NCBI GenBank assembly: GCA_050633245.1
Contig: JBOEGD010000011.1
Location: forward strand, 160,001 to 224,000
Length of the DNA stretch: 64,000 nucleotides
Direction: 5' to 3'
Source: Calditrichia bacterium
GTDB taxonomy: Bacteria; Calditrichota; Calditrichia; RBG-13-44-9; J075
The notes beneath the pieces are model-generated. The model saw nothing but the letters and a program-made list of their open reading frames with translations, had not been told where the DNA came from and searched no databases. A program made the position numbers and the translations under genes. This document shows, piece by piece, positions 6,246 to 57,704 of the stretch (the stretch's first letter is position 1; each line of letters starts with the position of its first letter).

Positions 6246-6272
6246 ACTTATCACAGGAAGGAATCATATTTT

Positions 6273-9518: not shown

Positions 9519-9628
9519 AGCTGCCTCTGTGATGTGATATTGTTTGTGATCGGAGAATGCGGTTAAAAAAATTTTGCAGATAAGTTAGTATCGGCGGGTT
9601 AAAGGCTCGGCATTAGCAGGAAAATTGA

Positions 9629-12681: not shown

Positions 12682-12840
12682 CCGACATCCGTCTGTTTAT
12701 GCTGCGAATCTAAGGGATATAGACCTCTCAGACAACCTTCAATATTGTAATTCGGGATTTATCGTTTTTTCTCCGCTAATGTCTTCAGGTGAATGCTCCG
12801 AAAATTATTGTCATAAAGCGTTCAATCAAGGAGGATTGAG

Positions 12841-28266: not shown

Positions 28267-29490
28267 TTACTCTGGAATCTTGACGTTCTTCTTGAGAAGC
28301 TTATTTAGTTTTTTTGCTGAGGGAATTTCACGAAAGGTGAAACCGTTTTGTTGAAAATAAGATGATTCCTCAAGCTGTGGTGCAAGCTGCTTGTCTTTTG
28401 CCAGCTTGGTTGCCACGCCGATCAGTAAATTGAATTCACCGGCTTGTTCCAAGTTGTGCAGACGATCTATCAGCTGAGTTGAATGCCAGGCGTGAAAAAG
28501 TTCAAGGGCATAAAACTCTCCGCTACTATGAATAAACTCGTAGTCCGGGAAGCAGTAACGGTCACCTGGAAGTGGAAAAAAATCTTCGGCCGCGCGAATT
28601 TTCCAGTCCGACTTGATCGTATCAAATGCAGTTTGGAGCAAGCCTATTTCTTTAGGGATATAGTCCAGAAATCGACTTACATAGGGTTTCAATCCACTGG
28701 TGTGATCAATACTCAACCTGGAACTTTTGCGTCGTCCGATTTGAATGTGGGCTTCCAGCTTCCAGGCGGGTTGGGCAAGTACGGCAGGGAAAAACATTGC
28801 CAGACTTAACCCGTATTTCTTGGTCTGATAAAACAGGTTAAGCGGCCCATCGATGTGAATTTTATATCCACTGTCCGTTTTGCTAATGGATGCAAGCAGC
28901 TGCTGAAAACGTAAATACTTGAACAGCTGTCGCAGCGATCCGGTGCGCGATTGCGGCAACGTGATTTCCAGCTTGGACGAGTGAATTAACAGTCCCTGAA
29001 CCTGGGCGCAATTGTAGCGCTGCAATAATTTATCGGGGGTGATAGACTTAATTCTTTTAACGGTTTGCTGCGAAGGCAGGTCTCCGTACAGCTGTTGTCG
29101 AATAATTGTAATTGGAAGGTTAAGCTGTGTGCTGAGATGTGTAGTGTAGCTTTCCAGATTTAGATCGCTGTGCGAGCTTAGTAACTGTGACCCCGCCCTC
29201 AAGATCTCCTCCCGAAATTGGGGTAGTTCTGTGCCGGCTTCGCTGTCGAACTCAAGGCGATCCATGAGCAGTTTTTCAAACCCTCGAGCCACTAAATTTC
29301 CAACAGTTGAGTTCTCGCGAATGGCGGCGCTACGCTGCAAAACAGCCTCTCGGCTCGAGCCTGTTGAGGTTTTGAAGAGCTCGACTAACTGACCAGCGAG
29401 TTTGAGTAAGTTTGGATTCTCGGGGTTTACGAAGGTCGGAGAGATATTGCCCTTGCTGTTTTTATAGCGAATCAGGTCCTTTGTAAGCAC
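28267..29490 (-). CDS. DUF790 family (Bax1-like) nuclease
   Basis: Likely GTG start 'MLTKDLI'; 'LYGDL', 'LLQRYNCAQVQGLL', 'IDGPL.LF.QTKKYG', 'PDYEF...LELF' nuclease motif; overlaps the helicase stop. Confidence 0.82.
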   Translation of the reverse strand: MLTKDLIRYKNSKGNISPTFVNPENPNLLKLAGQLVELFKTSTGSSREAVLQRSAAIRENSTVGNLVARGFEKLLMDRLEFDSEAGTELPQFREEILRAGSQLLSSHSDLNLESYTTHLSTQLNLPITIIRQQLYGDLPSQQTVKRIKSITPDKLLQRYNCAQVQGLLIHSSKLEITLPQSRTGSLRQLFKYLRFQQLLASISKTDSGYKIHIDGPLNLFYQTKKYGLSLAMFFPAVLAQPAWKLEAHIQIGRRKSSRLSIDHTSGLKPYVSRFLDYIPKEIGLLQTAFDTIKSDWKIRAAEDFFPLPGDRYCFPDYEFIHSSGEFYALELFHAWHSTQLIDRLHNLEQAGEFNLLIGVATKLAKDKQLAPQLEESSYFQQNGFTFREIPSAKKLNKLLKKNVKIPE

Positions 29491-30847
29491 GGTGCTGCCT
29501 TCTGCGTTTGTTGACGAATTGCTCACCGGTTTTGTGTGAGATTAATTCGTAAAGCATTGCTTGTTTTTCGGGACGAGCTCTAAGAATCCTGCCAAGACGC
29601 TGCACATGTTCTCTTACGCTTCCGCTGCCCGATACGATAATGGCCACATTGGCTTCCGGTACATCTACGCCTTCGTTTAAAACCTTTGATGTAACTAAAA
29701 CGGAATAGCTGCCATCGCGAAAGTTGCTCAAAAATGCTTCTCGTTCTTTCACCTTGGTGTAATGCGTTAATACTGGCAAGATAAACTTCTTGCCGATGCG
29801 ATAGGCCATTTCATTGTCCTGCGTAAAGACGATGATTCGTTCTTTGCGATGCTTTACAAGAAGCTCCCATACGACATCGAGCTTAGCACTTGCGGCCTGG
29901 CTCAACTTTTTTTGAGTGAGATAGGCCTTGTATGCTCGACGTCCCTCCTTGCTGCGGCTGGATTTCCATAGAAATAGATTCCAGCCATTTGGTCCTGCCA
30001 TACTGATTTTTTCACGTTTGAGGAAGTCGATATAGGTTTGTCGCTCGCGGTCATATTCTTCACGCTCGTCCGGATTCATTTCAATCTGGATTGTTTCGAC
30101 CTCGTAAGGTGCCAACGTTCCGCCTGTCATTTCCCGAATGTCTGCCTGATAGCAAAGGTCACCTACCAGTTGATAGAGCAGTTCCTCTTTCCCGTCCGCA
30201 CGCTCTGGTGTTGCCGTCAATCCCAGACGAAAAGGTGCAATATTACTAAGAGCCGTGTATTGGAACTGTGCTCCGGGCAGATGATGGCATTCATCAAAAA
30301 TCACGAATCCGAAACGGTTTCCCTTACTTTGAACATGAAGTAATGCAGAGTCGTATGTCGCTACTGTGATATCATGAGTTTCATTATAGCCGCCACCCCA
30401 AAGACCAATGTCCCGTTTGAAATAGTGCGTTAATACCTCATGCCATTGCTGCATTAAATCGATCGTTGGAACGTGAACCAGCGTCGGTCTTCCAACCCGG
30501 GCCATCAGCATAACGGCAAGAATAGTCTTCCCTGCGCCGGTTGGTAGTGCAATCACGCCGAGCATATCATTATCCATCCAGGCCTGCAGCGCAATTTTCT
30601 GATGTTTGCGCGGTTCAATTTTGTTTTGAAGAGGCAAGTCGATAGTAGAATACCCCCGGGCCTGATCATCAACATCGGCTCCGAAATGATTGAGGCCCAG
30701 AATAATCTGGCGATATTCATGTGCCGGTGCTCTAAACTGACGCGTTCGGTTATCCCATTGGATGTTGTGCTTGCCTGAAAGCTCCTTTGGCGGATCGTTA
30801 AGAATCAACGTTCCTTTATCAAAAAAAAGAGTAGTTTTTTTGGTCAT
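29462..30847 (-). CDS. XPB/Rad25-like SF2 helicase
   Basis: LPTGAGKT, DECHH, GLTATPERADG, VLNEGVDVPEA, QRLGRILR. Confidence 0.9.
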   Translation of the reverse strand: MTKKTTLFFDKGTLILNDPPKELSGKHNIQWDNRTRQFRAPAHEYRQIILGLNHFGADVDDQARGYSTIDLPLQNKIEPRKHQKIALQAWMDNDMLGVIALPTGAGKTILAVMLMARVGRPTLVHVPTIDLMQQWHEVLTHYFKRDIGLWGGGYNETHDITVATYDSALLHVQSKGNRFGFVIFDECHHLPGAQFQYTALSNIAPFRLGLTATPERADGKEELLYQLVGDLCYQADIREMTGGTLAPYEVETIQIEMNPDEREEYDRERQTYIDFLKREKISMAGPNGWNLFLWKSSRSKEGRRAYKAYLTQKKLSQAASAKLDVVWELLVKHRKERIIVFTQDNEMAYRIGKKFILPVLTHYTKVKEREAFLSNFRDGSYSVLVTSKVLNEGVDVPEANVAIIVSGSGSVREHVQRLGRILRARPEKQAMLYELISHKTGEQFVNKRRRQHRAYKGPDSL

Positions 30848-31018: not shown

Positions 31019-32197
31019 CTAATAGGAAAAGCCAAGCCGTTTCAGGCGGTTCTGTTTTAATGCATTGCCCAAAAAGCCAAACTGAAAGCGTAAAGTGATA
31101 ACGTTGCCGGAAAGATCGCTGCCGCCGGTATTGTTGTAGTCTACGATGTGATAGCGAAGCTGAAAATTTATATAAAGCGATTGAAATGGTGGGACGTAAT
31201 AACGATACCCAATGCCGCCGTTTATGTTGAAAGCAAAAATAGATTTCCCGCCTTCACCATTGACATTGCGCTTTATGGTGTCGAAGCCATCCAGGCCAAT
31301 GCCGCTTAATATTTCAACCTCGTTGCGGCCGCGACGATACAACTCGCGGCTGAGTTCAAGTCCCATAAAGGCGCCGATGAAGTGATTGCTTTCGACAATC
31401 TCGCCGGCATCGGTTTGAACCAAGTAGCTGGATGGGGTTTCCCGAAACTTACTGATTGCTGTTAAATTGAACATAAATTGTCGGTATTTTGCTCCAACGG
31501 TAAATCCAGCCATCGGGTGAGAGCCGACAATCTTTAGATTGCCGCCCGGATTCCAGCGACCCACTGAGAGTCCAATATGGAAATCAATTTGATCGCGAAC
31601 TGCTGAGACCGCGCGATCATAATATTCGCGAACTGCTGAGTGTTCATATTCCTCGTCTAGAATATGTTTTGTGACATCCTGAACTCTGTTTGCATAAATC
31701 TTGCAAAGTAATTTCGCACTGCCGCTAAGCTTTAGGCTGTCTAAAGCATGCTGTGCCATCGTTTGGGTATAGTGATTGAAGCCTTCGTATAAATAGTGTA
31801 TTTCTCTTGGTACGCCATCTATTGGGTAGTGAACAGAATACCAGGGTGCCTCTGATAGCTCATCGGATAGACGCATTTTGTTCTCATATTCTGTCAGAAA
31901 CCAGATGATGCGTTCGTCGAAAACGTCCTCAGTAAACCTCCCTTCCTGTAGTGAATGAAGAATTATAAAGCGCTGTAGGGGCTCAATCATCCCAGCTTCA
32001 AACAAGCCGCCCAGCCAGTAACGCAGAGTTAGCCTGACCGAATCTTGCTCGGCGCGATCATTGTACAGCATGGCAAGCCTTGAGGCAGAGTAAGAGATTT
32101 CTTCCCACAGAACATCTTGTGCTTTCGCAGTGGTGCCCAAATTAAACAGGGCGAAGAAGCAAAGAATAGCGCTAAGACAGAACGCTGTGCCAGTCAT
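31019..32197 (-). CDS. Hypothetical protein with signal peptide and C-terminal outer-membrane beta-barrel
   Basis: ATG 32197 'MTGTAFCLSAILCFFALF...AKA' signal; amphipathic strands ('GFTVGAKY', 'NINGGIGYRYY', 'NFQLRYH'). Confidence 0.6.
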   Translation of the reverse strand: MTGTAFCLSAILCFFALFNLGTTAKAQDVLWEEISYSASRLAMLYNDRAEQDSVRLTLRYWLGGLFEAGMIEPLQRFIILHSLQEGRFTEDVFDERIIWFLTEYENKMRLSDELSEAPWYSVHYPIDGVPREIHYLYEGFNHYTQTMAQHALDSLKLSGSAKLLCKIYANRVQDVTKHILDEEYEHSAVREYYDRAVSAVRDQIDFHIGLSVGRWNPGGNLKIVGSHPMAGFTVGAKYRQFMFNLTAISKFRETPSSYLVQTDAGEIVESNHFIGAFMGLELSRELYRRGRNEVEILSGIGLDGFDTIKRNVNGEGGKSIFAFNINGGIGYRYYVPPFQSLYINFQLRYHIVDYNNTGGSDLSGNVITLRFQFGFLGNALKQNRLKRLGFSY

Positions 32198-33815
32198 TCG
32201 GCTGCTCGAGAAAGCGCGGCTTGATGGTTCCGCTAATGGCTGTTTTGGCTCGGAAGGCATAGTAGAGTTTGTCGGCGCCTTTAGGCAGCGCTTGCGCTTG
32301 AAAGGCAGCGAGTTGGTAAAGCGATCGGCAGTTCTGATAGTGGTAGTTTTCACAAAGGCCCTTTTCGATATCAAGTGCTAACTTCGCAAAATTATGTTCA
32401 ACGTCTGTGGTATAAAACAAGCAGTAGCTGCTAGGTTTTTTTTGCGTGTTTGCCGCGACAAAGTAGAATGAGCTCTGAATGGACTGGTTTCGAAACGCCA
32501 CTTCAACTACGTCACGCAGGTGCTGTTCACTGATTTTTTCGCCATATAGATCTGAAATGCCATCCTTTTTCCCGAGAAATTTTAAGCAGGGTGCCTGATG
32601 AAAATACCCGGTGCACAAAACTCTGTCGTTTAGGCGGTAGCGATATAACCCGCCAGACGTTGTAATTATCACACTATATTCACCGTTTTCTCTTAGTTCA
32701 GTCGCGGTATGAACTGTGCCATTTGCAAGGTTCTCGAACTCGTAAAAATGTGATGTTGCCGTCAAAACATGTTGCGGTGTTTCATCTTTAGTACTCTGTA
32801 TTGGAATAGTTACAATACCCTCTGTTGCCAGTAACCCCTTTGGTTGAACCGCGACACCGGGAAATGCTTTTTTAAGTTCTGGAATTGAATTCTTTGCCCA
32901 CGCATCAGCCCAACAGCTTATAAGTGCAAGGTTGGGCCAGATTGCACGCCAGTCCCGCGAGGTGACCGCCTGCTGAATTAAGGTGGCTCTTTCCTTTTTT
33001 CCCTTGAAGATGCCTTTTATTTGCTTTAGCTGAACCGATGGCAAAGGTGAGGGGGGCGTTATACTTCCTGAAGCTAAATCTTGGAATAGTGCATCCTGCC
33101 ACAGGATTGCTTTGTCCATAAGAACCAGCAGGGAGGTTGGATTCCAGAGAGAAATAAGTCTTAAATTCTCTTCGCTGAACAGAAAAAGCAAAGATAGATA
33201 TGCATGATTTTCCATGTCTGTTACAGTGGAAAGTACTGGGGGAATCACCATTAATTGTCTTACAAGCTTTCTCTCAACAAAAGACAGGTAATCTGAATCT
33301 GACGCGAACTCAATGGGAATGACGCTCTGTTCAGGTTTGGTAATTGGTGTGGGCGGTGAGACGAACCAGTATGCCCGTCCTGCCATTAATTCCGGATAGG
33401 TAGACATCAAATTGTATATCCATGCTCCAATAGCTTGCTGAAATTCGTTTCTCAGTGTGGGTGTTGAGGGGATGTATTTGCACGCGCTGGCCGTACCGCT
33501 TGTAGGTTCAAATCTTGTAATAGCTGACGCGGTCAGCACATTTTCTTCCCCGGTCATTATGCGCTGAATCTGCTGAGAATAGTCCTGGTAATCTGTAACT
33601 GGCACCTGCTCTTGAAACTCAGCGACCGTGCGAATTCTGGAAAAGTTGTGCTCACTACCAAAACGGGTGTTTTGATTTACATTAAGGATGTTTTCCAGGA
33701 TAGCAGTTTGAGCAGTCCGAACATTTTTGCATGCGTACAAAAAGTTTTTCCAGCTTTTTCGGGAGCTGAATTTCCAAATGGAATTGGCGAGGTAGGGGAT
33801 AGATGGTGAAATCAT
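32172..33815 (-). CDS. GH3 (auxin-responsive) family acyl-adenylate-forming amido ligase
   Basis: 'F...VPVTDY.DY', 'FEPTSGT...KYIP', 'GLLATEG', 'FYEF', 'TT.GGLYRYRL.D', 'DLYGEK'. Confidence 0.88.
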   Translation of the reverse strand: MISPSIPYLANSIWKFSSRKSWKNFLYACKNVRTAQTAILENILNVNQNTRFGSEHNFSRIRTVAEFQEQVPVTDYQDYSQQIQRIMTGEENVLTASAITRFEPTSGTASACKYIPSTPTLRNEFQQAIGAWIYNLMSTYPELMAGRAYWFVSPPTPITKPEQSVIPIEFASDSDYLSFVERKLVRQLMVIPPVLSTVTDMENHAYLSLLFLFSEENLRLISLWNPTSLLVLMDKAILWQDALFQDLASGSITPPSPLPSVQLKQIKGIFKGKKERATLIQQAVTSRDWRAIWPNLALISCWADAWAKNSIPELKKAFPGVAVQPKGLLATEGIVTIPIQSTKDETPQHVLTATSHFYEFENLANGTVHTATELRENGEYSVIITTSGGLYRYRLNDRVLCTGYFHQAPCLKFLGKKDGISDLYGEKISEQHLRDVVEVAFRNQSIQSSFYFVAANTQKKPSSYCLFYTTDVEHNFAKLALDIEKGLCENYHYQNCRSLYQLAAFQAQALPKGADKLYYAFRAKTAISGTIKPRFLEQPNDWHSVLS

Positions 33816-33850
33816 AATAATAAACGTCACCTGCCGGAAGGCAGGTGACG
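33816..33850 (-). terminator. Strong hairpin/terminator after the TonB receptor, immediately upstream of the GH3 start
   Basis: Perfect 11-bp stem CGTCACCTGCC/GGCAGGTGACG (33825-33850) followed on the minus strand by TTTATTATT then ATG. Confidence 0.7.
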
Positions 33851-33864
33851 AGATAATTAATGCT

Positions 33865-36468
33865 TTAGAAGCTGAGGTTTAAGGCGCCAAGAATAACGCG
33901 ACCATTAAAACCAAACTGATTTACTTCCCAGGGGTAGCGGAAGCGTCCACCAAGATCGGTTACGACATCGCCGCCGGTCTCAATTTCGTCCGGATAAGTT
34001 CCGGCAATATTGTTAACAAGCAGGCTAAGTGAAATCTGATTGCTGAACGCATAGCTTGCGTTCAAATCGAATATCGGCTTACCAGCAAAGGTCTGATCCA
34101 GAGTTGGGTCGCTGGCGTGCTGCCAGGTTACTTCACCGAAATAGGTTCCGGAGACGCCAACTGTCAGAGGAACAGCCGCAAGATCGTAACTAACACCCAG
34201 GATTACTTTTTGGTTTGGACGAGCGGAAAGAATACGACTTTGCTCTTTGCGATCGAAGATGTCCGCGCCATCGGCTGCCAGAACGGAAGGTGTATTAATT
34301 TGTCCCTCAATTGAGTGATCGTAAAAAGATGCTGCAGCATTGAAGCGCAGGCCATCTTTTGAATAGTTTCCAACCAAATCAAGACCACGAGTGCGACTAT
34401 TAACAGCGTTGATAAAGAATTTCAGGCTGGTAATAGAGTTCGCATCCAGAATTGCGCCAACTGTTGTCGTGGGATCGCTATTGGCAATCGAGCTAGAGAA
34501 AATAATCCGATCATCAACGTCAATCTGAAAAACATCTGCAGAAATATTCACGTTCTGTGATGGGCGAGCTGCAAAACCAAAGGTAAAGTTGATTGATTCT
34601 TCTTCTTTAAGTTCAGCTACGCCAAGTTCACGGAGAATCGGGCTCGTATTGTCAAATGTTCCCTGGTTACTTACGGTTCCACCGGATACAAGCGTTTGAA
34701 TATTACTTAGATTAATTTGATGCAGAGATGGCGCTCGGAAACCAGTTGAAAATGAGCCGCGAACGCTGAAAGAGTTCAGTGGGCTCTTATAGCGAGCTGC
34801 AGCTTTAAACGTTGTGCTGGTACCAAAATCACTATAGTTCTCGAAGCGTACAGCGCCACCAACATAGAAGTCTGGTGTAACGTCAGCGCCAAGATCCAGA
34901 TAGGCACCAAAGTTGGTGCGAGTGGCATCTACTTCATTCTGTGGCTGAAGTCCTGGAAAAGATTGTGCTCCGCCACCAGTGTAGGATGCTTCTTCGCCCG
35001 CGTTGGCAACGAATTTTTCCTGTCGGAACTCACCACCGACACTGGCAAAAATCTGCTCGCTCAGCTGACGGGAGGCATCAACATTGACGATGTTATTGGC
35101 AAATTCATAACCACCAGCATCGAACTCTGTTGGGCTATCTGCACCCAGAGCCGGATTTAACGTATTGCCAATGTTGTAGTCAACCGAATTCATCCCAAAG
35201 GAATAGCTTAGGTCATAATTCCACCCGGATCTGTTGCCACGATAACCGGCAGAGCCTGAGACATCAAGGACATCGGTGTCGAAGGTCGGCTGGAAGCCTT
35301 GATATTCTGTGCCTGCTTCATGTAGTAGATTATTTGGATCCGGAATCCAGTAGGGTGTGCGATATAGTGCGTAGCTCTCACCTTTGCGTAAAACAACGCC
35401 ACCAAATCCATAAATTTCATCAGTTTCATTTACTTTATAAGCACTGTTCAGGTATCCACTGCCCTTTGTCAGGTTTGGCAGACCAACAGTCATACCAAGA
35501 TCAGGGTTAGCCATAATGAAGGGGTCGGTTCCATCAACACCAAACAGCTGATCATCGCCCGGCTCACCGGCACGGTTTGTTTCTTCCTGATCGGAAAAGC
35601 TTGCTGTGAAGTTGATAAAGCCTTTGTTATCAAAATTTTTGCCCGTATTCAAGTGTGCACCATACTGAAAACCATCGCCTTCTTCTGTGATTCCGGAAAA
35701 AGCGTTTATCGTGGTTTTTTCAGTTTCATCAGCCAGAATAACGTTAATAACACCGGCAATAGCGTCTGAACCGTATTGAGCAGAAGCACCGTCACGCAGA
35801 ACTTCAATGCGTTTTATAGAACCAACCGGAATACTACCCATGTCTACGCCGACGTCACCTTTACCAGGCGTGTCATTGATGTAAACGAGTGAGCTTGCAT
35901 TTTTACGCTTACCGTTAATAAGCACCAACGTACGGCTCGGCCCAAGACCACGCAGGTCAGCCGGATCAAAATGCGCCGTTGCATCAGAAATGGTTTGCTG
36001 GGTAGAATTGAAAGAGGGCACGCTATAATGCATCATTTTGTCAAATGATACCTGTGCGGTTGCTTCCAGTTCACGAATGTCGATGTTGTCAATCGGAACA
36101 GGAGAGGTGATGGATGTGCGTGGGCGGAAACGAGATCCTACAGTAGTAACCGACTCACCTGCAATCGCATCTTCTGCCAGAGTAACATAGACATAACTGT
36201 CATTGGTTGCTGTTACGGATTGTGTTGCGTATCCGACATAAGAAAAAACCAGCGTTGCCGGCAGGCTTGCCACCTTAAAGCTAAATGCTCCATCGCTGTC
36301 TGTTGTCGTTCCGTTCTGCGTACCGGACTCAACAACATTTACACCAGCTAGCAGGCTGCCGTCGGCGCCTTTTACCTGGCCGGTAAGAACGACATCTTGT
36401 GCCACCAAAAAGCCGGTTGCTAAAAGAAGCGTAAATACCGCGGTTAATAAATTGTGACGTTGTTTCAT
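33865..36468 (-). CDS. TonB-dependent receptor with N-terminal carboxypeptidase-regulatory-like domain
   Basis: GGAG RBS + ATG 36468; signal peptide; 'GTTTDSDGAFS', 'FSYVGY'; plug 'LRGLGPSRTLVLINGKR', 'IEVLRDGASAQYGSDAIAGVIN'; C-terminal F. Confidence 0.93.
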   Translation of the reverse strand: MKQRHNLLTAVFTLLLATGFLVAQDVVLTGQVKGADGSLLAGVNVVESGTQNGTTTDSDGAFSFKVASLPATLVFSYVGYATQSVTATNDSYVYVTLAEDAIAGESVTTVGSRFRPRTSITSPVPIDNIDIRELEATAQVSFDKMMHYSVPSFNSTQQTISDATAHFDPADLRGLGPSRTLVLINGKRKNASSLVYINDTPGKGDVGVDMGSIPVGSIKRIEVLRDGASAQYGSDAIAGVINVILADETEKTTINAFSGITEEGDGFQYGAHLNTGKNFDNKGFINFTASFSDQEETNRAGEPGDDQLFGVDGTDPFIMANPDLGMTVGLPNLTKGSGYLNSAYKVNETDEIYGFGGVVLRKGESYALYRTPYWIPDPNNLLHEAGTEYQGFQPTFDTDVLDVSGSAGYRGNRSGWNYDLSYSFGMNSVDYNIGNTLNPALGADSPTEFDAGGYEFANNIVNVDASRQLSEQIFASVGGEFRQEKFVANAGEEASYTGGGAQSFPGLQPQNEVDATRTNFGAYLDLGADVTPDFYVGGAVRFENYSDFGTSTTFKAAARYKSPLNSFSVRGSFSTGFRAPSLHQINLSNIQTLVSGGTVSNQGTFDNTSPILRELGVAELKEEESINFTFGFAARPSQNVNISADVFQIDVDDRIIFSSSIANSDPTTTVGAILDANSITSLKFFINAVNSRTRGLDLVGNYSKDGLRFNAAASFYDHSIEGQINTPSVLAADGADIFDRKEQSRILSARPNQKVILGVSYDLAAVPLTVGVSGTYFGEVTWQHASDPTLDQTFAGKPIFDLNASYAFSNQISLSLLVNNIAGTYPDEIETGGDVVTDLGGRFRYPWEVNQFGFNGRVILGALNLSF

Positions 36469-36532
36469 AGAATTTCTCCATGATAAAGGACGTGTAGGAT
36501 GAATTAGGGTGTTTTGTTTATCTTTTTTTTTG

Positions 36533-36561
36533 AATATATCGGTTTGGAATAACTTACGCAA
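36533..36561 (-). promoter_or_regulatory. Sigma70-like promoter of the TonB receptor
   Basis: TTGCGT-17 nt-TATATT on the minus strand. Confidence 0.55.
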
Positions 36562-36687
36562 GAGTGTGTTTTCACATATTTTAGGAAAAAGTAAATGACG
36601 AATCATCGATCGAAATGTCCAAAACTTAACACATTTCAGCGAGACGTCAAAAAAGCTGCCTAACAGCATTTTAATATTAACGGGATT

Positions 36688-37422
36688 CTATTCCGCAAGT
36701 TGCAGTGGGGGAGTGTCATCGACATGTTTTTTTAGCTGACGTTTAATAAAAGGCGTAATATTTTCTTCACCAAGTGGGGCAATGCAAACGAGTTCACTGC
36801 CTGTATCTACGTGCGGATTTCTTTCATAAAAATAGTCTACGTGTGGATTGGTACGGCCGCGTAAATCAAACTCTGCTTTTAAAGCCTGTGAAGAGGTCGT
36901 GCCATTAATGAGTCCTGATTGAGGGTCATAGCGATCCGGATAGCGCTTGTGCCCCAGGCTATTAATAAGGTCTGCTTCCCACTTGGGCGTAGGTTTTTCG
37001 TGCCGGGGATAAAACTCATGAAAAAATATTGGAAGAAATCGATATGTTCGAACGCCTTTTGAAATTAACATCCAGTATAATTTCTCCCCCGGGTTGGCTT
37101 TTTTTAATGAAAGCATCAGGTTGCCCCAGGCGATCGGAAGCGCGAAGCTTCCCCAGTAGGTTGAATCGATTACGGTGTCACCGGAAAAAAGAATGAGCAA
37201 TTTCTCGTCGCGAAGGCGATGCTCAAACAGCAATTGCGTCGAGAATCCACAAATTTCATTCTCTTCGTTTCTCAGTAAAATAACCCAATCTTTTTCTGAT
37301 AGATCGGCAGTGAAATTGTGTTCATCGACATTTCGATAATGTCGCTGCATTAACGTCAGCATCTGATGTTGTTCCTGCCTGGTAATTTCGCTGACCGAAA
37401 TGGTTTTTCCTGTAAGTGCCAT
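36688..37422 (-). CDS. Hypothetical protein, probable GNAT-like fold
   Basis: 'ICGFST', 'FSGDTVID..YWG', 'YWMLISKG.RTYRFL'; 1 nt from the upstream gene's stop; fold call is inference. Confidence 0.6.
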   Translation of the reverse strand: MALTGKTISVSEITRQEQHQMLTLMQRHYRNVDEHNFTADLSEKDWVILLRNEENEICGFSTQLLFEHRLRDEKLLILFSGDTVIDSTYWGSFALPIAWGNLMLSLKKANPGEKLYWMLISKGVRTYRFLPIFFHEFYPRHEKPTPKWEADLINSLGHKRYPDRYDPQSGLINGTTSSQALKAEFDLRGRTNPHVDYFYERNPHVDTGSELVCIAPLGEENITPFIKRQLKKHVDDTPPLQLAE

Positions 37423-37423
37423 G

Positions 37424-38524
37424 TTACAATGCTCCTAATTCCAGATATGGCGTACGCCCATCCGGAGTTGGGTGAACTGAGTTGTCCCAATAAACATAAT
37501 ACAATCGGCTCAGATATGGAATATGCGGTAGCCCTCTTGCAGCAGATAACAATGCGTCTGTCTCGTGTAATCCCAATAAAACAGAATGTAAATTCTTGTT
37601 TGCTGAAAGAACGGTTTTTAAAAGCTGTATAAAGATATCCTGCTGGTCGTTTAGAATACAGCATAGTGCACAACTTCCATAGTCGAGTTCGCCTTTCGCC
37701 GGCAGGATGGGTTTCCCATAGATCTTGTGCAATAAATTGTAGAGCGGTTTTGCGATGTGAACACTCCGGCTATATGTTTCGATGACAGTTTGCCGAAAGG
37801 ATTTCTGGTTCCATAAAGCCAGCGTACCGAGAATGCGATTAGCCGACTCTGCGATGTAGATATCATGATGTGTTAAGCCGCGGAGAATTCCGGTTGCAGA
37901 TCGAAGGTGAGTTTCCGTGTAGTGAGGGAATAGTTGGCGCTTGCGTCCATTCGTATTTAGAAAGTCTATAATTGCGGGAATGTCTTCCTCTGTTGCTCTT
38001 CGGATACTTGTATGTGTCTTTGGTTCAGAAGCTCTTGCTCGATAGGCTAAAGTAATATACTGCCCGCCGTCGACATATCTTGGTAATCCCGCTTTACCCG
38101 ATGTTAATAGTCGCTTTGCGAGAATATTGTCCTCCACAATCGTGGTGAAATAGTAACGTACCTTTTCAGCATTATGGATTTGCCGTAGATGTTTGTAGCC
38201 TCTGGCAACCGCTAAGCCATTTCGATAGCTCTCTTCGAGGCGTAATCCACTTAAGTAGCCAACTGCGGTTATTTTATCATTTAAATAGCAGTTTTTAACA
38301 GACCGGGTTCCAAAGCCAACAATTTTTTTCGTTTGCTTATCCTTTGCCGTTACAACGTGCGTGCGTTCGCCTTCGACCTGAATTGCCTCAAAAAAGGATG
38401 GCTCACGACGAAAAGAAAGTGAGATTCGTCCCGGCATTGAATTTTCGCGCAGGAGCCGTCTCAGGTCTGCATCATCACTCTGTTTTGCTGAAGCAATGTC
38501 AACGTAGCGCAGTTTATGAGGCAT
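37424..38524 (-). CDS. Tandem GNAT-like acyltransferase
   Basis: 'GYLSGLRL...YRNG' acyl-CoA-binding-type motif; second GNAT start 'IRRATEEDIPAII.FL'. Confidence 0.65.
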   Translation of the reverse strand: MPHKLRYVDIASAKQSDDADLRRLLRENSMPGRISLSFRREPSFFEAIQVEGERTHVVTAKDKQTKKIVGFGTRSVKNCYLNDKITAVGYLSGLRLEESYRNGLAVARGYKHLRQIHNAEKVRYYFTTIVEDNILAKRLLTSGKAGLPRYVDGGQYITLAYRARASEPKTHTSIRRATEEDIPAIIDFLNTNGRKRQLFPHYTETHLRSATGILRGLTHHDIYIAESANRILGTLALWNQKSFRQTVIETYSRSVHIAKPLYNLLHKIYGKPILPAKGELDYGSCALCCILNDQQDIFIQLLKTVLSANKNLHSVLLGLHETDALLSAARGLPHIPYLSRLYYVYWDNSVHPTPDGRTPYLELGAL

Positions 38525-39890
38525 GTGCAATTTTTGTGTCAGCAACCTTCAGCAATTCCCCCTTGAAGCGCAGGTCTCCAAGTGGATAGTCTTCACGTTG
38601 CGTAGCCTCCTTGCGCAAGAGTAAATTGATAAACCAATAGGCATGTAGCATAAACAGTCCTCCGGCGTTCGTGCTGTCGAACATGCGATTGACGATAGAC
38701 GGTATGCTGTAAAATGCCTTCCGCGCATTCACGCATTCGCTCTTGATGACATCGGGTGGAATAGCTGTTTTAAACGGTACTTGCCCGTATTGATACCGTT
38801 CATCCATCCACCACTTATCGTAAAGTAACTTTCCTTCTGCTTCGAGCTTCTTGTATAATGGTGTTCCCGGAAAAGGGGTGAGATGATTAAAGGCCGCCAT
38901 ATATATTTTGTGTTTAACACAGAAATCGACGGTTTCCTTAAAAGAATCCATTGTGTCTTCTTCATAGCCAAAGATAAAGGTGGCGTAGAGACGAATGCCA
39001 TATTCCTTGAACTTTGCCAGTGCCGGTTCAAATCCACCCCGCGCAGAGTTGAACTTTTTGTTCATATTTTCAAGATTCTTTTTATTGAGCGACTCGAATC
39101 CGACCAATACCCCCTGGCATCCGCTTTCCTGCATAATCTGAAGAAGTTCTTCATCATAAGACATGGTAATGGATGCCTGGCTTACCCACTTTATGTTGAG
39201 TGGAATCAGCGCGCGATAAAACTCCTTTGCTTCTTTAGGGTAGGATGCAATGTTGTCATCTACAAAGAAGAACAACTTCTTGTCTTGCTTCATTTCCCTT
39301 AACTCGCTAATTATTTCTTCCGTTGTGCGCCGGGTTTGGGTGGCATCGAAGTAACTCGTTACGGCGCAGAACTCACATTTAAAAGTACAGCCCCTTGCCG
39401 CCTCGATGAGGCCCAATTTTAGATAACTCTTGCCTTTGAAAATGCTGCGGTCGGGGCGAATGCGGCTAATGTCGGAGCGTCCTTCAATGCGATAACTACG
39501 CTGCATACAGCCATTTTCAAAATCCTGCAATAGCTGCGGAAAGCTCTGTTCAGCCTCACCGATTACTATTGCCTCGGCATATTCCTGAACTTCCTCGGGA
39601 ATAAGAGTTGTGTGAAATCCGCCCATTACGACGGGAATCCCGCGTCGTCGGTATTCTGTTGCAATCTGGTAGGCGCGCTTGGCAGTATAGGTTTCGACAC
39701 TGATTGCCACTAAATCGGTCGGCTCCTCGTAAGGAATCTCTTCCAGCCTGTCGTCCCAAAAGGCAATGTCCCAATGAGAAGGTCGCAGCGCAGCCAAATA
39801 CGCCGGGGCAAGAGGCTCCATCTGCCAACTTTTAATGTAGGACTTTCCGGGAATTCGTCCGACGCAGGGATGAATAATGGTTAGCTTCAA
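38514..39890 (-). CDS. B12-binding domain radical SAM protein (paralog 4)
   Basis: 'EPL..AYLAAL.P', 'VVMGGFH', CxxxCxxC 'RGCTFKCEFC', 'FFVDDN', 'TPFPGTPLY'; GGAGG RBS + TTG overlapping the upstream TGA. Confidence 0.93.
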   Translation of the reverse strand: MKLTIIHPCVGRIPGKSYIKSWQMEPLAPAYLAALRPSHWDIAFWDDRLEEIPYEEPTDLVAISVETYTAKRAYQIATEYRRRGIPVVMGGFHTTLIPEEVQEYAEAIVIGEAEQSFPQLLQDFENGCMQRSYRIEGRSDISRIRPDRSIFKGKSYLKLGLIEAARGCTFKCEFCAVTSYFDATQTRRTTEEIISELREMKQDKKLFFFVDDNIASYPKEAKEFYRALIPLNIKWVSQASITMSYDEELLQIMQESGCQGVLVGFESLNKKNLENMNKKFNSARGGFEPALAKFKEYGIRLYATFIFGYEEDTMDSFKETVDFCVKHKIYMAAFNHLTPFPGTPLYKKLEAEGKLLYDKWWMDERYQYGQVPFKTAIPPDVIKSECVNARKAFYSIPSIVNRMFDSTNAGGLFMLHAYWFINLLLRKEATQREDYPLGDLRFKGELLKVADTKIAHAS

Positions 39891-41224
39891 AGTGCACCTC
39901 CGAGACAATTGTAAAATGTCGATAAATTTTGAGCATAATAGCGATAGCCGATATTGGCAGCTACGATAACCGGCAATAGTTTTAAGCGATGTTGAAGGCG
40001 ACGTGTATTACGTATGGCCATATTTTTATAACCATAGACATCGCGCCAGATTTTTTCATGGCCGTTTAGCAACTCTGTCGCAGACATTTGTGCTGGTTCA
40101 AAAACAACATGTTGTCCATCGTACAAGCTCCAGTCACGTGAAATAATGCGCTGCTGGGTCTCTAATTGCTTGAATAAGGGTGTTCCGGGAAATGGTGTGA
40201 GTAGAGAGAAGCGTGGCAGATCGATTCCGGTAGACATAACAAAATCCCGAACCTCAGAAAAGCTTTCAAGTGAATCAGAGTCATTGCCAAAAACAAATGT
40301 CCCATTGATGGCAATGCCTAAACGGTGCAGGGTCTCAACAACTGCTGCGTAGGTGTGTGGTCGATTAAAACGCTTGTTCGAGTCTGCCAGCGAACCGGTT
40401 GAAAGACTTTCAAAGCCGATTAGTAATCCTCGACAGCCAGAGCGAGCAAGGAGGTTGAGCAATTCTTCATCTTCAACAATGAGTGTTGTGGCAAGTCCAA
40501 ACCATTTAATTCGCAATGGGATCAACGCAGTAAACAGCTGCTTTGCATAGCGCCGATCGGCAATTATGTTGAGATCGTAGAAAACCAGATGCTTCGCACC
40601 AAGCTGCCGAATATCTTCCACTACATGCTGCACGGGCTTCAAGAATGGCTTTCTGCCCCAAGCTGACGGCACCACGCAGAAGTCGCACTTGTGTACGCAC
40701 CCGCGCGTGGCTTCAAATGTGTTCATAGACTTAAAAGCGCGCTTGTCTAACATGTCTCGTTTGGCAAAGGGGATGGATGGCATATTGTTAAAGGAAAAGT
40801 CTGGGGACATATCGTAGCGTGGTTTTAACTGCCCGGATTTATAGTCGTGTAGAAGTAATGGCCAGGACTCTTCGGCATAGCCGGTAACAATACTGTCTGC
40901 ATGTAGCTGCGCTTCCTCGGGTAGCAAGGTGACATGTGGCCCGCCGAGCACAACGGTTTTACCCTCGTTTTGAAATTGCTTTGCAAGCTCATAAGCACGT
41001 GGAGCCGTTCCGGTAATGACCGTCATACCAACCAGATCAGCATCAATGCGTTCTGGAAGATCCTCAATGCCCTCGTCATAGAGGATAATCTCAGCATTGA
41101 GTTTCTCTGGAACCAACGATGCCAAAGTTGTCAGTGTCAACGGGGCAACTCTGAGCGACTTGCGAAAAATGCCGGTCCGATGACGATAGAGCGGTCCCTT
41201 TGGGGATATGAGTGCTATTTTCAT
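39887..41224 (-). CDS. B12-binding domain radical SAM protein (paralog 3)
   Basis: 'APLTLTTLASL.P', 'VVLGGPH', 'RGCVHKCDFC', 'GFES', 'TPFPGTPLF'. Confidence 0.93.
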   Translation of the reverse strand: MKIALISPKGPLYRHRTGIFRKSLRVAPLTLTTLASLVPEKLNAEIILYDEGIEDLPERIDADLVGMTVITGTAPRAYELAKQFQNEGKTVVLGGPHVTLLPEEAQLHADSIVTGYAEESWPLLLHDYKSGQLKPRYDMSPDFSFNNMPSIPFAKRDMLDKRAFKSMNTFEATRGCVHKCDFCVVPSAWGRKPFLKPVQHVVEDIRQLGAKHLVFYDLNIIADRRYAKQLFTALIPLRIKWFGLATTLIVEDEELLNLLARSGCRGLLIGFESLSTGSLADSNKRFNRPHTYAAVVETLHRLGIAINGTFVFGNDSDSLESFSEVRDFVMSTGIDLPRFSLLTPFPGTPLFKQLETQQRIISRDWSLYDGQHVVFEPAQMSATELLNGHEKIWRDVYGYKNMAIRNTRRLQHRLKLLPVIVAANIGYRYYAQNLSTFYNCLGGAL

Positions 41225-41243
41225 TGCAAAACCTGCGGTTTTG

Positions 41244-41351
41244 AGTTCAAAGTTCAAGGTTCAAAGTTCAGAGTTAGACTAAAAAACTTGTGTCGAACAG
41301 AAGCTTATCAAGCTATCCAATGAATAAACGTTGAACTCTGAACGCTGAGCT
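41244..41351. repeat. Inverted arrays of 7-bp tandem repeats (AGTTCAA-like ... TTGAACT-like)
   Basis: AGTTCAA AGTTCAA GGTTCAA AGTTCAG at 41244-41271; TTGAACT CTGAACG CTGAGCT at 41331-41351. Confidence 0.7.
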
Positions 41352-41357
41352 TTGTTT

Positions 41358-42689
41358 TTAGTGTAGCCCGAAACGCATTCCCTGTTTTTTAAATGTCTCT
41401 TTGCGATAGAGCGGTGTATATCGCAGGTAGACAGCCATCTTATATAAAGAACTCATATTCGTACTGAAATCGAATGCTCGCCGGATGATTGCCCCTACCC
41501 GATTGTAATCTGATCGCAGTTGAAAGCAAGCTTCCGTTAATTCAGCAGGGGTCATGTTCTTTGGTTTGAACGTTGCGTGATTGAAGCGATATTCGGGATG
41601 CAGCCACCACTTATTATTATACAAGAGCCGTCCTTCTTTCTTCATGCGTTCGTAAAGTGGCGTTCCCGGATATTGAACAAGTATGTTAAAAGCGGCAAAG
41701 GTAAACTTGTTCTCCTGTGCAAACTGACCGGTTGCCATAATGGATTCCAGCGTATCATGATCATGCCCAAGAGTAAAGGCAGCCCAGGTTTGCAGCTTAT
41801 GCTTACGCAGAACTTCAAGCTGTGCCGAATACGTGTCAAATTGCTTGGTAAGGTTCGGGCCCTTTTTCATCCACTGCAGGCTGCCGGGATCGAGAGACTC
41901 AAAACCAATCACATTGCCAACACACCCGCTGGCGGCCATCAGCTCCATCAACTCGGGATCACGCGTCATATCTATACTGGCTTGAGAAACCCAGTGAACC
42001 TTTAGAGGGATCAACGCTCGGAACAACTCTTTGGCTGCTGCCTGGTCGGATACAATGTTGTCATCAACAAAAAAGATCAGTTTGCGCTCCGATTCCTGAA
42101 TTTCGCGAACCAATTCCGGGATATTGCGGGTATAGTGCTTGCGGCTAAAAAAAGAACTGACTGCACAAAAGGTACAGGCAAAGCGACAGCCGCGGGTAAA
42201 CTGCATCAGCTTGATAGGAAGATAACCCTTGCCCTTAAAAATATCTCTGCGCGTCATAACGCCTGGCTGCGGGACACCCACATTCGCTTTATAGACTGGC
42301 TTCAGTTTGCCTTTCTCGGCGTCGGCTATCATTTCTGCCCACCGAAACTCGGCATCGCCAATATAGATAGAGTCTGCATGTGCCTGAACTTCTTCAGGTA
42401 TCAGCGTCGGCTGCATTCCGCCCATAATCACCTGAACACCGCGCTTGCGGTATTCCGCGCCTATCTCATACGCTCGGCGTGCGGTATAGGTCTCTACGGT
42501 AATAGCAACAAGGTCGGTTTTCTCATCATAGGGAATCTCTTCACAGCGATCATCGTACATCACAACTTCAACATCCGGCGGGGTTAACGCGGCAAGAACG
42601 CCAAGCTGAAGCGGCTCCATACGACCTTCATCAACGTAGAGGCTGTGTTCCATGCGTCCAATATTGGGCTTTATAAGCGTCAATTTCAT
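41358..42689 (-). CDS. B12-binding domain radical SAM protein (paralog 2)
   Basis: 'MEPLQLGVLAALTP', 'VIMGGMQ', 'RGCRFACTFC', 'FFVDDN', 'YPGTPLY'. Confidence 0.93.
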   Translation of the reverse strand: MKLTLIKPNIGRMEHSLYVDEGRMEPLQLGVLAALTPPDVEVVMYDDRCEEIPYDEKTDLVAITVETYTARRAYEIGAEYRKRGVQVIMGGMQPTLIPEEVQAHADSIYIGDAEFRWAEMIADAEKGKLKPVYKANVGVPQPGVMTRRDIFKGKGYLPIKLMQFTRGCRFACTFCAVSSFFSRKHYTRNIPELVREIQESERKLIFFVDDNIVSDQAAAKELFRALIPLKVHWVSQASIDMTRDPELMELMAASGCVGNVIGFESLDPGSLQWMKKGPNLTKQFDTYSAQLEVLRKHKLQTWAAFTLGHDHDTLESIMATGQFAQENKFTFAAFNILVQYPGTPLYERMKKEGRLLYNNKWWLHPEYRFNHATFKPKNMTPAELTEACFQLRSDYNRVGAIIRRAFDFSTNMSSLYKMAVYLRYTPLYRKETFKKQGMRFGLH

Positions 42690-42701
42690 ATCAACCTCTT
42701 G

Positions 42702-44018
42702 TTATGCCGGTGAACAGCCACCCAGCGTGCGGCCTTGTTTATCTAAAATCTCCCAGCGTGCAACCACATTCGATGCCAGGAAGATGCCCAGGCGATAAGG
42801 ATTAAACCAGTTGTCCCGATAACTGAATGCGCGACGAAAAATACTGTTGTAGTAATTGAATTCCTTGCGAGCCATAAAGCAGCCATCGGTTAACTGTTTG
42901 GCGGTCATGTTCTTCGGCTGAAAGGTTGCATCGCCATAACGATAGCTCTCGGCAAGCCACCACTTGTCATATAGCAATCGACCCTCTTTCTCAAGGCGAT
43001 CATAAAGCCCGGCTCCCGGGGTTGGCATAAGAGGATTAAAGTTAGCCAGAAAGAAGTTATGTCTAAGGGCAAAGTCTAACGTGGTGCGAAAACTATCTGG
43101 AGTATCATGGTCATAGCCAAATACAAAGGTGCCGTAGAGCATAATGCCAAGGCTCTTTAGCTTCTTAATAGCTACTTCATAGTCGCCATACTTCACGTTC
43201 CACTTTTTCTTCATTTGCGCAAGATTGTCTTCATTAAGCGATTCGAAACCTATAAGGGCAGATATGCAGCCGCTGCGTCGCATAAGACGCAGTACGTCTT
43301 CATGGCGGGTAATATCTATGCTTACCTGACAAGACCAGGTGATCTTAAGTGGAATGAGTGCCTCGAAGAGAGCGCGAGCTTTATCTAAATCGACAAATAA
43401 ATTGTCATCAACCAGGAAGACGTGGTGCGGGCTTAGTGCCTTTATTTCGGCAATGACCTCTGGAATGTCGCGCTGACGGAGATCTTTGCCGTAAAAGGCA
43501 TGGATCGAGCAAAAGTCGCAGGCGAAGCGACAGCCGCGTCCATATTGAACCGGTGTGGCAGGGCGATAGCGTTTTCCCCTAAATATGCTGCGATCATAGT
43601 TCAGCTGCTTCAATCCGGGGTGAACATCTTGCCTGTATATCTTTTGAAGTGAGTTTGTTCGGGTGTCCTCAACGACCATTTCCCAGAGACCTTCGGCATC
43701 GCCAATTACTACGGCGTCTGCATGCTCCAGCGCCTCATCGGGCAGAAAGGTTGCATGATATCCACCCATGACGACTGGCACGCCGCGTTTGCGAAACTCA
43801 TCTGCTATTTGATAAGAACGCCGGGCCGTGAAGGTCTCAACAGTCATTGCGACGAGGTCGGTTGCTTCATTGAAAGGAATAGCTTCCAGGCGCTCATCAT
43901 AAAAGAGGGTTTCTACATCGTCGGGTGTCAGTCCTTTGAGGATGGAAAACACAAGAGGCTGTAGCGCATCCGAAGAGCGCATGTCGTATAGATTCGGGCG
44001 GATAAAAGTGATTCGCAA
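42702..44018 (-). CDS. B12-binding domain radical SAM protein (paralog 1)
   Basis: GGAG RBS + TTG 44018; 'LQPL...LKGLTP', 'VVMGGYH', 'RGCRFACDFC', 'LVDDN'. Confidence 0.93.
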   Translation of the reverse strand: MRITFIRPNLYDMRSSDALQPLVFSILKGLTPDDVETLFYDERLEAIPFNEATDLVAMTVETFTARRSYQIADEFRKRGVPVVMGGYHATFLPDEALEHADAVVIGDAEGLWEMVVEDTRTNSLQKIYRQDVHPGLKQLNYDRSIFRGKRYRPATPVQYGRGCRFACDFCSIHAFYGKDLRQRDIPEVIAEIKALSPHHVFLVDDNLFVDLDKARALFEALIPLKITWSCQVSIDITRHEDVLRLMRRSGCISALIGFESLNEDNLAQMKKKWNVKYGDYEVAIKKLKSLGIMLYGTFVFGYDHDTPDSFRTTLDFALRHNFFLANFNPLMPTPGAGLYDRLEKEGRLLYDKWWLAESYRYGDATFQPKNMTAKQLTDGCFMARKEFNYYNSIFRRAFSYRDNWFNPYRLGIFLASNVVARWEILDKQGRTLGGCSPA

Positions 44019-44095
44019 GGTTAATTCTCCAAGTGCGGAATCGTCAGTTATGCAGCTAAAATTGCCGATTGAAAAGTGCAATGAGCGTTATACTC

Positions 44096-44124
44096 ATGTT
44101 ATCGTTTTCAGCTGATATAGGCAA
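44096..44124 (-). promoter_or_regulatory. Sigma70-like promoter of the radical SAM operon
   Basis: TTGCCT-17 nt-TAACAT on the minus strand; adjacent ATGAG-N7-CTCAT inverted repeat (44081-44097). Confidence 0.45.
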
Positions 44125-49660: not shown

Positions 49661-49670
49661 ACGACCGCAA

Positions 49671-54909: not shown

Positions 54910-54984
54910 CGGGGCGTGGCGCAGCCTGGATAGCGCGCTACATTGGGGTTGTAGAGGTCGCTGGTTCAAATCCAGTCGCTCCGA
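54910..54984 (+). tRNA. tRNA-Pro (GGG)
   Basis: Acceptor CGGGGCG/CGCTCCG-A; anticodon arm CTACA-TTGGGGT-TGTAG; T-loop GGTTCAAATCC; no encoded CCA. Confidence 0.96.
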
Positions 54985-57630: not shown

Positions 57631-57704
57631 CGGGGTGTGGCGCAGCCTGGTAGCGCGCACCGTTCGGGACGGTGAGGCCGGAGGTTCAAATCCTCTCACC
57701 CCGA
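57631..57704 (+). tRNA. tRNA-Pro (CGG)
   Basis: Acceptor CGGGGTG/CACCCCG-A; anticodon arm CACCG-TTCGGGA-CGGTG; T-arm GGAGG-TTCAAAT-CCTCT. Confidence 0.96.

Follow-up and report, generated by a model that had tools for sequence, protein, structure and literature searches.

A conserved gene cassette of B12-dependent radical SAM enzymes, two GNAT-fold protein families and a GH3 ligase as a candidate pathway for an amide-linked small molecule

We analyzed a 64,000-nucleotide stretch of DNA from a Calditrichia bacterium (assembly GCA_050633245.1, contig JBOEGD010000011.1, positions 160,001 to 224,000), which is referred to below as the window and whose own numbering is used throughout. Nine intact open reading frames (ORFs) are called on its minus strand between positions 31019 and 44081. 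Four of them encode class-B radical S-adenosylmethionine (SAM) enzymes, in which a B12-binding domain is combined with a radical SAM domain (rSAM1 to rSAM4); two encode GNAT-fold proteins of unnamed families, here designated G373 and G244; the remaining three encode a TonB-dependent receptor, a GH3-family ATP-dependent acyl acid amido synthetase and a predicted secreted or outer-membrane protein, BB451. The nine co-directional genes listed in an initial annotation are therefore all present and intact, but they do not form a nine-gene unit, since the receptor and BB451 are found in none of 80 related loci and the core usually comes with two radical SAM genes. The conserved core consists of five genes, rSAM-rSAM-G373-G244-GH3, and the window carries a seven-gene form of it with two local additions. 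In our judgement, the balance tips slightly towards the seven genes (rSAM1 to rSAM4, G373, G244 and GH3) being a self-contained, horizontally mobile cassette that makes a decorated, amide-linked, lipid-like small molecule.

The evidence for a common cassette comes from other genomes. The loci of the best 80 of the G244 relatives found in genomes of 321 species were searched by tblastn with the window proteins. G373 was detected in 71 of the 80 loci and GH3 in 69; one or more B12-radical SAM genes were present in 64. For 48 loci the flanks were adequate, that is, at least 6 kb upstream and at least 3 kb downstream were available; in this subset, G373 and GH3 were each present in 47, at least one B12-radical SAM gene in 44 and all three in 43. 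Since the core set recurs in 43 of 48 flanked loci from other genomes, the grouping is not due to chance, and the genes do co-occur across phyla, as the initial annotation's proposal of a single system had anticipated. Where both genes were called, GH3 lay directly downstream of G244 in 51 of 57 loci, and G373 directly upstream of G244 in 50 of 53. For 24 of the 80 loci, the ORF calls gave precisely the series rSAM3-rSAM4-G373-G244-GH3; many calls were spoiled because the genomes are high in GC. By a count of record titles, the cassette is spread over about 15 phylum labels, with Planctomycetota accounting for 50 records. The other labels are Verrucomicrobiota, Kiritimatiellae, Lentisphaerota, Acidobacteria, Calditrichia, Bacteroidota, Chloroflexota, Bacillota, Pseudomonadota, Fibrobacterota, Spirochaetia, Sericytochromatia, Saganbacteria and Moraniibacteriota, and two bins are labelled as DPANN archaea.

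Among close kin, the occurrence is patchy. A close G244 homologue was present in one of 15 other genomes of the same family, two further genomes had only distant matches, and a metagenome scan with G244 returned four loci at 42–49% identity and no close relative. Such a distribution is in keeping with a mobile accessory cassette. At L002, the locus of the closest relative (rSAM4 84%, rSAM3 70% and G244 51% identical), the five genes stand alone amid unrelated NACHT/FGE-sulfatase and other genes. The IncF plasmid NZ_CP134684 of Citrobacter portucalensis carries the order G244-GH3-rSAM3-rSAM4-G373-rSAM1-rSAM2-PAP2, with four radical SAM proteins that are 50–61% identical to those of the window; this operon thus ends with a PAP2 phosphatase gene. 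In two chromosome-size Acinetobacter baumannii records, a version lacking radical SAM genes consists of an HlyD adaptor, a major facilitator superfamily (MFS) pump, G244, GH3, an outer-membrane efflux protein (OEP) and G373. In one of them (locus L096, NZ_CP064203, positions 6159–13838 of the locus), G244, GH3 and G373 are seen interleaved with the tripartite efflux pump. Burkholderia arboris has G244, a desaturase, GH3 and a Rieske protein, and distant G244 relatives were found in Azospirillum.

The four radical SAM genes lie at 42702–44081 (rSAM1), 41358–42689 (rSAM2), 39887–41257 (rSAM3) and 38514–39908 (rSAM4), all on the minus strand, and encode proteins of 443–464 amino acids with a mutual identity of 33–43%. 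They had been described as paralogous B12-binding proteins with a CxxxCxxC motif, and the description stands: the radical SAM domain PF04055 exceeds its cut-off in all four (57.4, 46.8, 56.0 and 70.8 bits for rSAM1 to rSAM4), and the B12-binding domain PF02310 exceeds its 32.1-bit cut-off in three (rSAM1, 34.1; rSAM3, 41.7; rSAM4, 36.9 bits), rSAM2 falling under it with 25.3 bits. The CxxxCxxC motif, which reads CRFACDFC at residue 184 of rSAM1 and CRFACTFC in rSAM2, is kept in all four proteins and in 122 of 122 radical SAM sequences of the cassette. None of the four reaches a characterized NCBIfam equivalog (best scores 99.5, 76.7, 75.8 and 105.8 bits versus cut-offs of 251–750). Their best partial matches are to BchE, HpnJ, PhpK, ApyD and the TIGR04072 lipid protein, all far under cut-offs; even the top score, 105.8 bits, compares with a cut-off of 600 for PhpK.

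A tree of 118 homologues and the four window proteins, built with FastTree (a quick method, with local supports), places each window protein in an orthogroup of its own. Accessory orthogroup 1 (rSAM1) comprises 12 rows with a support of 99, plus two strays, and accessory orthogroup 2 (rSAM2) comprises 12 rows, also with a support of 99. Core orthogroup 3 (rSAM3) has 47 rows and a support of 98, and core orthogroup 4 (rSAM4) has 49 rows and a support of 94; the nearest row of both is L002, at the identities given above. rSAM1, rSAM2 and rSAM4 cluster together, apart from rSAM3. Since each of the four orthogroups mixes phyla, the four genes are not a recent local amplification. Judged by their sequences, they are two conserved pairs, a general one (rSAM3/rSAM4) and an optional one (rSAM1/rSAM2). 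The 48 adequately flanked loci hold no radical SAM gene in 4 cases, one in 2, two in 28, three in 6 and four in 8. Because some loci keep the GH3 and GNAT genes without a radical SAM gene (in four fully flanked loci, GH3 and one or both GNAT genes were present with none within reach), the radical SAM genes look like tailoring steps. A fifth B12-radical SAM paralog, 34% identical to rSAM3, is encoded elsewhere in the genome (G000:C24:188853-190097, locus L088, 7872–9245), where its neighbors are an ankyrin-repeat protein and an AraC-type regulator and it has no GH3 or GNAT partner. No cobalamin riboswitch was found in the window, the only one of the genome being located elsewhere, and B12-linked regulation of the cluster is thus unsupported.

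The next two genes, G373 (37424–38545, minus strand) and G244 (36688–37422, minus strand), had been called GNAT-like. Neither protein matches a Pfam or NCBIfam model at E ≤ 0.01, GNAT family models included, and profile searches with the two families gave no significant sequence match in the PDB. The GNAT folds are seen in AlphaFold models built on alignments of relatives, with a predicted local distance difference test score (pLDDT) of 93 for G373 and 92 for G244. G373, for which 486 relatives were collected (some with PF00583 or PF13527 in precomputed tables), is modelled as a tandem-GNAT protein. Its top Foldseek matches are all N-myristoyltransferases (NMTs), with TM-scores of 0.60–0.65 and E-values near 1e-13. 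The VIA comparison, which is independent of Foldseek, gave Z-scores of 22.0 for MAB_4324, 21.8 for an NMT and 21.7 for a glucosamine N-acetyltransferase, tandem GNATs as a group spanning 17–22. The alignment with the NMT runs from residue 3 to residue 366 of 366, with 306 aligned residues and a root-mean-square deviation (rmsd) of 4.0. The chain end of the family is fixed: 28 of 28 sequences in the alignment of relatives stop at the same position, and of 59 family ORFs taken from the loci, 58 have Leu as the last residue and 51 carry a terminal E[LIV][GA]x[LMIV] motif. In NMTs, the C-terminal carboxylate serves as the catalytic base. The fixed end of G373, taken together with this, suggests that the resemblance to NMT may go beyond a shared fold.

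G244, with 628 relatives, the nearest of them 67–93% identical, is modelled as a single GNAT domain with an insertion. In an exhaustive HMMER search of 1.84 billion sequences, its profile retrieved 2291 representatives at E ≤ 1e-3, of which 876 also passed a threshold of E ≤ 1e-30. The motifs GFSTQ, FSGDT and KGxxTYRxLPxFF are invariant in the family. The best VIA match is NatD (Z 12.6, rmsd 2.9, 154 residues), and the others include Naa50 (11.9), LasI (11.3), TofI (10.4) and FeeM (9.9); 144 chains reach Z ≥ 8, with many acetyltransferases tied at 10–12.6. Gene fusions suggest that G244 is functionally tied to GH3. Three of the best 150 profile hits, predicted metagenomic proteins, are single chains of 726–788 amino acids in which an N-terminal G244 is followed by a full-length GH3 that is 29–34% identical to the window GH3. 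If the fusions are real, G244 and GH3 act on the same molecule in consecutive steps. A word-index search for fused forms had returned none; since HMMER found them later, this result reflects a limit of sensitivity. A second context of the G244 family was seen in four Planctomycetota loci (L011, L012, L038 and L092), where G244 relatives without GH3, G373 or radical SAM genes adjoin a conserved protein of 451–457 amino acids that has no Pfam match (cluster c15).

The GH3 gene (32172–33830, minus strand) is the only one in the genome. All three GH3 domains exceed the 23.6-bit cut-off (PF03321, 170.1; PF23571, 60.2; PF23572, 26.7 bits), so that the family assignment made earlier is correct, and the protein aligns with plant GH3 chains along its length (residues 30–482). 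Two motifs of GH3 enzymes bind the nucleotide, a P-loop rich in Ser and Thr and YRxGD; their counterparts in the window protein are TSGT (residue 110) and YRLND (residue 398). The first motif, as [ST][ST]G[ST], is present in 56 of 60 cassette GH3s, and the strict pattern of the second in only 6 of 60, from which it follows that the second motif varies in the family. OlsH, the only characterized bacterial GH3, joins a free fatty acid to ornithine in an ATP-dependent reaction; those who described it point out that GH3 homologues are widely distributed among bacteria and may produce other N-acyl amino acids (PMC12493201). The window GH3 scores 52.2 bits against the OlsH model NF052613 (cut-off 620), and only over residues 10–166. 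No OlsI-type alpha/beta-hydrolase was found among the nine genes or in the scanned flanks, and no OlsG methyltransferase in the cluster.

The following recur on the same strand beside the cassette in other genomes: FA_desaturase in 24 loci, SnoaL-like in 20, non-B12 radical SAM in 18, an unnamed 338-aa protein in 16, Rieske oxygenase in 15, hexapeptide-like in 10, Amidohydrolase_2 in 9 and two families of small proteins with 3–4 transmembrane segments in 8 and 5. A further 69 operonic neighbor ORFs include three SAM methyltransferases, two FA_desaturase and two FA_hydroxylase proteins. As the initial annotation had remarked, there is no non-ribosomal peptide synthetase (NRPS), polyketide synthase (PKS), acyl carrier protein (ACP) or conserved precursor peptide beside the genes. 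Nor is the set a characterized pathway as far as could be determined: besides the equivalog scores reported above, a full-text literature search, most subscription journals being outside its scope, found no publication on it. Stieleriacine-type N-acyl tyrosine biosynthesis was considered as a known counterpart and dropped, since the term “radical SAM” does not occur in the accessible text of the 2025 paper on it (PMC12479983).

From the genes and their predicted folds, their co-occurrence and order, the four radical SAM orthogroups and the G244-GH3 fusions, we infer every step of the following scheme. GH3 would adenylate a free carboxylic acid, most likely a fatty acid or N-acyl amino acid, and couple it to an amine or amino acid. 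G244 would be a direct partner of GH3 and would either produce its substrate or acylate its product. G373 would add a further acyl group from a thioester donor, and its invariant C-terminal carboxylate may be the base. The class-B radical SAM enzymes would then tailor unactivated carbons of the scaffold by methylation or another radical reaction, with rSAM3 and rSAM4 acting as the general pair and rSAM1 and rSAM2 supplying optional extra steps. That the product may be a lipid is hinted at by two things: the membrane-lipid type of the tailoring partners (FA_desaturase, Rieske, small proteins with 3–4 transmembrane segments, FA_hydroxylase and PAP2) and the use of free fatty acids by OlsH (PMC12493201). 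The amide-lipid reading gains support from the whole-length resemblance of G373 to NMT and from the ties of G244, which include N-acyl homoserine lactone (AHL) synthase- and FeeM-type enzymes. The earlier suggestion of a scaffold-free acyl-amide pathway likewise fits the reaction of OlsH (PMC12493201); the further terms of that suggestion, a “multiply C-methylated or cyclised” product and a “metallophore”, stay conjectural.

Several observations weigh against a lipid-like amide. In the window genome, tblastn found none of the accessory desaturase, Rieske, SnoaL, amidohydrolase and small membrane proteins, the window cluster itself holds no lipid-specific gene, and no transmembrane segment is predicted in any core protein. 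Plant GH3 enzymes act on small hormones and not on lipids, so the acid could be a non-lipid one. The structural matches of the modelled GNAT proteins appear as ties among many families. Overlaps between the G244 and GH3 genes are frequent (median gap −38 nt), so that some fusions could be frameshift or gene-calling artefacts. Cyclization, ring contraction and P-methylation are further reactions carried out by class-B radical SAM enzymes, and with partial hits such as BchE, HpnJ and PhpK lying so far under their cut-offs, methylation is a guess. Finally, a peptide-like cargo is hinted at by the surroundings of the receptor's only paralog in the genome, which is 35% identical and has a gamma-glutamyl transpeptidase and peptidases as neighbors. 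A bolder version of the lipid-like amide, which we put forward tentatively and believe more apt to fail than to hold, is that the cassette represents a widespread undiscovered class of amide lipids or lipo-amino acids, with a head group set by GH3 and a dedicated GNAT (in some cases as one fused protein), a second acyl chain added by the NMT-like protein by means of its C-terminal carboxylate, and C-methyl branches or rings introduced at unactivated carbons by pairs of radical SAM enzymes. If so, such compounds could account, unrecognized until now, for some of the branched or cyclized lipids left in sediments and soils in which Planctomycetota, Verrucomicrobiota and Acidobacteriota predominate.

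Two genes of the window lie outside the conserved core. The receptor gene (33865–36669, minus strand) begins 18 nt past G244 and separates the G244-GH3 pair, which is normally adjacent elsewhere. It was correctly named, as the Plug, barrel and N-terminal CarboxypepD_reg domains (PF07715, PF00593 and PF13715) exceed their cut-offs. The protein reaches no NCBIfam equivalog and is not of the SusC/RagA type (TIGR04056, 106.6 bits versus 368.25, N-terminal part only; no adjacent SusD-like gene). A BtuB role was rejected: the corresponding models gave 72 and 62 bits versus cut-offs of 836 and 600, and the window has no cobalamin riboswitch. Between the receptor stop codon and the GH3 start, a pattern match revealed a terminator-like hairpin (33825–33850, minus strand) with an 11-bp stem containing 8 G-C pairs, followed by a T-rich tail. 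BB451 (31019–32374, minus strand), whose ORF overlaps the GH3 stop, had been called a beta-barrel, which is supported only in part. The protein has a hydrophobic segment resembling a signal peptide (residues ~59–90 of the longest ORF) and no Pfam match; Atlas look-alikes of the C-terminal half, named outer-membrane beta-barrel, provide no more than a lead. Of 86 genomes of the phylum, five encode BB451, and that of the window is one of the five. A tblastn search of the 80 related loci, L002 among them, gave no match at E ≤ 1e-5 to either the receptor or BB451. Both genes thus appear to be additions peculiar to this lineage that may be functionally linked to the cassette. What the receptor imports may be the product, a precursor or an unrelated compound.

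The foremost alternative, although we consider it rather unlikely, is that the product is an exported small amphiphile or soluble metabolite (a signal, surfactant or metallophore), not a membrane lipid; in the window, its passage through the outer membrane would be the task of the receptor and BB451. Such an explanation overlaps with that of a lipid-like amide in its chemistry and differs in the fate and role of the product. The best evidence for it is the A. baumannii version, in which the core without radical SAM genes sits inside a tripartite efflux operon (HlyD-type adaptor, MFS pump and OEP). It is also consistent with an OEP protein among the 69 other operon partners (one ORF), with the close spacing of the receptor after G244 and the overlap of the outer-membrane-like BB451 with GH3, and with core proteins that lack transmembrane segments. 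However, transport genes are not conserved in the cassette, a receptor homologue being found in none of the 80 loci and efflux genes in few; the hairpin after the receptor is what one expects of an inserted gene with its own end; and the recurrent partners are oxygenases and desaturases of the lipid type.

Modification of a peptide or protein, either as maturation of a peptide that is made on the ribosome and modified after translation (a RiPP) or as N-terminal or side-chain lipidation with radical C-methylation, is very improbable in our view. The closest Foldseek matches of G373 are enzymes that modify protein N-termini, as are the best single VIA matches of G244, NatD and Naa50 (protein N-terminal acetyltransferases). 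Class-B radical SAM enzymes methylate peptides in proteusin-type pathways, weak partial matches to the RiPP enzyme ApyD were obtained (55.7–89.6 bits versus a cut-off of 750), and a subtilase gene is transcribed divergently from the cluster. Against this reading, when 1780 ORFs of 18–95 amino acids from 81 regions were compared by blastp-short, small ORFs were shared only in two-locus pairs and no family extended to more than two loci, though very short or divergent peptides could escape such a search. Leader-peptide families, RiPP recognition elements, peptidases and ABC exporters are all absent from the recurrent partners, a counterpart of the subtilase occurs in only one of the 80 loci, and GH3 enzymes act on free acids.

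Decoration of an envelope polymer or cofactor (an amidated uronic or other carboxylate, an N-acylated amino sugar or a C-methylated sugar) is very improbable as well. In its favor, glucosamine N-acetyltransferases (Z 21.7 and 20.1) are among the tandem GNATs tied with NMT for G373, sugars are C-methylated by class-B radical SAM enzymes in aminoglycoside pathways, and one of the 69 partner ORFs encodes a Glycos_transf_4 protein. For rSAM4, sequence matches in the PDB were limited to AprD4, an aminoglycoside enzyme (E 4e-9), and a single radical SAM protein without a name. Against it, the partners include no recurrent glycosyltransferase, sugar-nucleotide enzyme or polymer export gene, and in L002 the cassette stands alone amid unrelated genes.

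The gene boundaries given above are those of the longest ORFs, and some are probably shorter. The true start of rSAM1 is most likely a TTG near 44018; G373, GH3 and BB451 likely start with the ATG codons at 38524, 33815 and 32197, respectively. By longest ORFs, rSAM3 and rSAM4 overlap by 22 nt and rSAM4 and G373 by 32 nt, the latter overlap shrinking to 11 nt with the ATG of the database copy P0124; G373 and G244 are separated by 1 nt. The overlaps and the 1-nt spacing reported in the initial annotation are thus confirmed by the ORF coordinates, whereas the end that it gives, 44124, is that of a 22-aa ORF read in a different frame.

The flanking genes are unrelated to the cluster. Directly downstream (28267–30847, minus strand), an XPB/ERCC3-type helicase gene with an XPB damage-recognition domain overlaps a gene for a DUF790 protein, a pair that resembles XPB-Bax1, the helicase-nuclease pairing known from archaea. 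On the other side, divergent from rSAM1, lies the gene of a 1379-aa S8 subtilase with FG-GAP and fibronectin-III repeats (44302–48441, plus strand); a much shorter S8 protein after GH3 in the related locus L005 is probably a coincidence. Farther away, a single ORF (49602–51113, plus strand) fuses a DEDDh exonuclease domain (RNase T/Pol III epsilon-like) to a GIY-YIG nuclease domain. Between 58001 and 60000, the G+C content falls to 0.38 as compared with ~0.46 elsewhere, just downstream of tRNA genes at 54910–54984 and 57631–57704; this stretch may be an island or an insertion site.

This analysis adds several points: the natural fusions of G244 with GH3, the constant chain end of G373, the division of the radical SAM enzymes into four orthogroups, the insertion of the receptor together with the hairpin that follows it, the Acinetobacter version without radical SAM genes in an efflux-pump operon and the four-rSAM version on the Citrobacter plasmid. 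With 321 species and about 15 phylum labels, the cassette is among the more widespread ones without a product, and two of its five core enzymes represent large families without a Pfam or NCBIfam model. Identification of the product would assign functions to thousands of hypothetical proteins, add to the chemistry of class-B radical SAM enzymes, possibly explain orphan lipids and provide a test for a bacterial catalytic design similar to that of NMT. The versions found in cultured hosts, including the Citrobacter plasmid, make the question directly testable.

As to known systems, the radical SAM proteins share with HpnR, HpnJ, BchE, PhpK and TIGR04072 proteins an N-terminal B12-binding domain followed by a CxxxCxxC radical SAM core, and partial alignments cover the core; they differ in scoring far under the cut-offs and in making up four separate orthogroups, which accompany GH3 and the GNAT genes. 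G373 is like NMT in being modelled as a tandem-GNAT pseudo-dimer in one chain with a fixed end. Unlike NMT, it is a bacterial protein encoded in an operon with GH3, shows 9–14% identity and no match to a Pfam NMT domain, and its structural match is tied with bacterial tandem GNATs of other functions. The N-acyl amino acid synthase FeeM and the AHL synthases LasI and TofI have a GNAT-derived fold and make amides from acyl-ACP. The modelled fold of G244 matches theirs with Z-scores of 9.9–11.3, but it is tied as well with dozens of ordinary acetyltransferases and has its own invariant motifs. The nearest parallel for GH3 is the GH3-dependent ornithine-lipid pathway OlsH/OlsI of Singulisphaera acidiphila (PMC12493201; reviewed in PMC12971839), through which a bacterial GH3 was first given a function in 2025. 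In both systems, a bacterial GH3 is central to an operon that lacks NRPS, PKS and ACP genes and contains tailoring genes. Radical SAM partners are mentioned neither in the paper nor in the review, whereas the GH3 of the cassette is accompanied by GNAT-fold proteins of two families without names and by two to four B12-radical SAM enzymes. The cassette provides a second, different context for a bacterial GH3.

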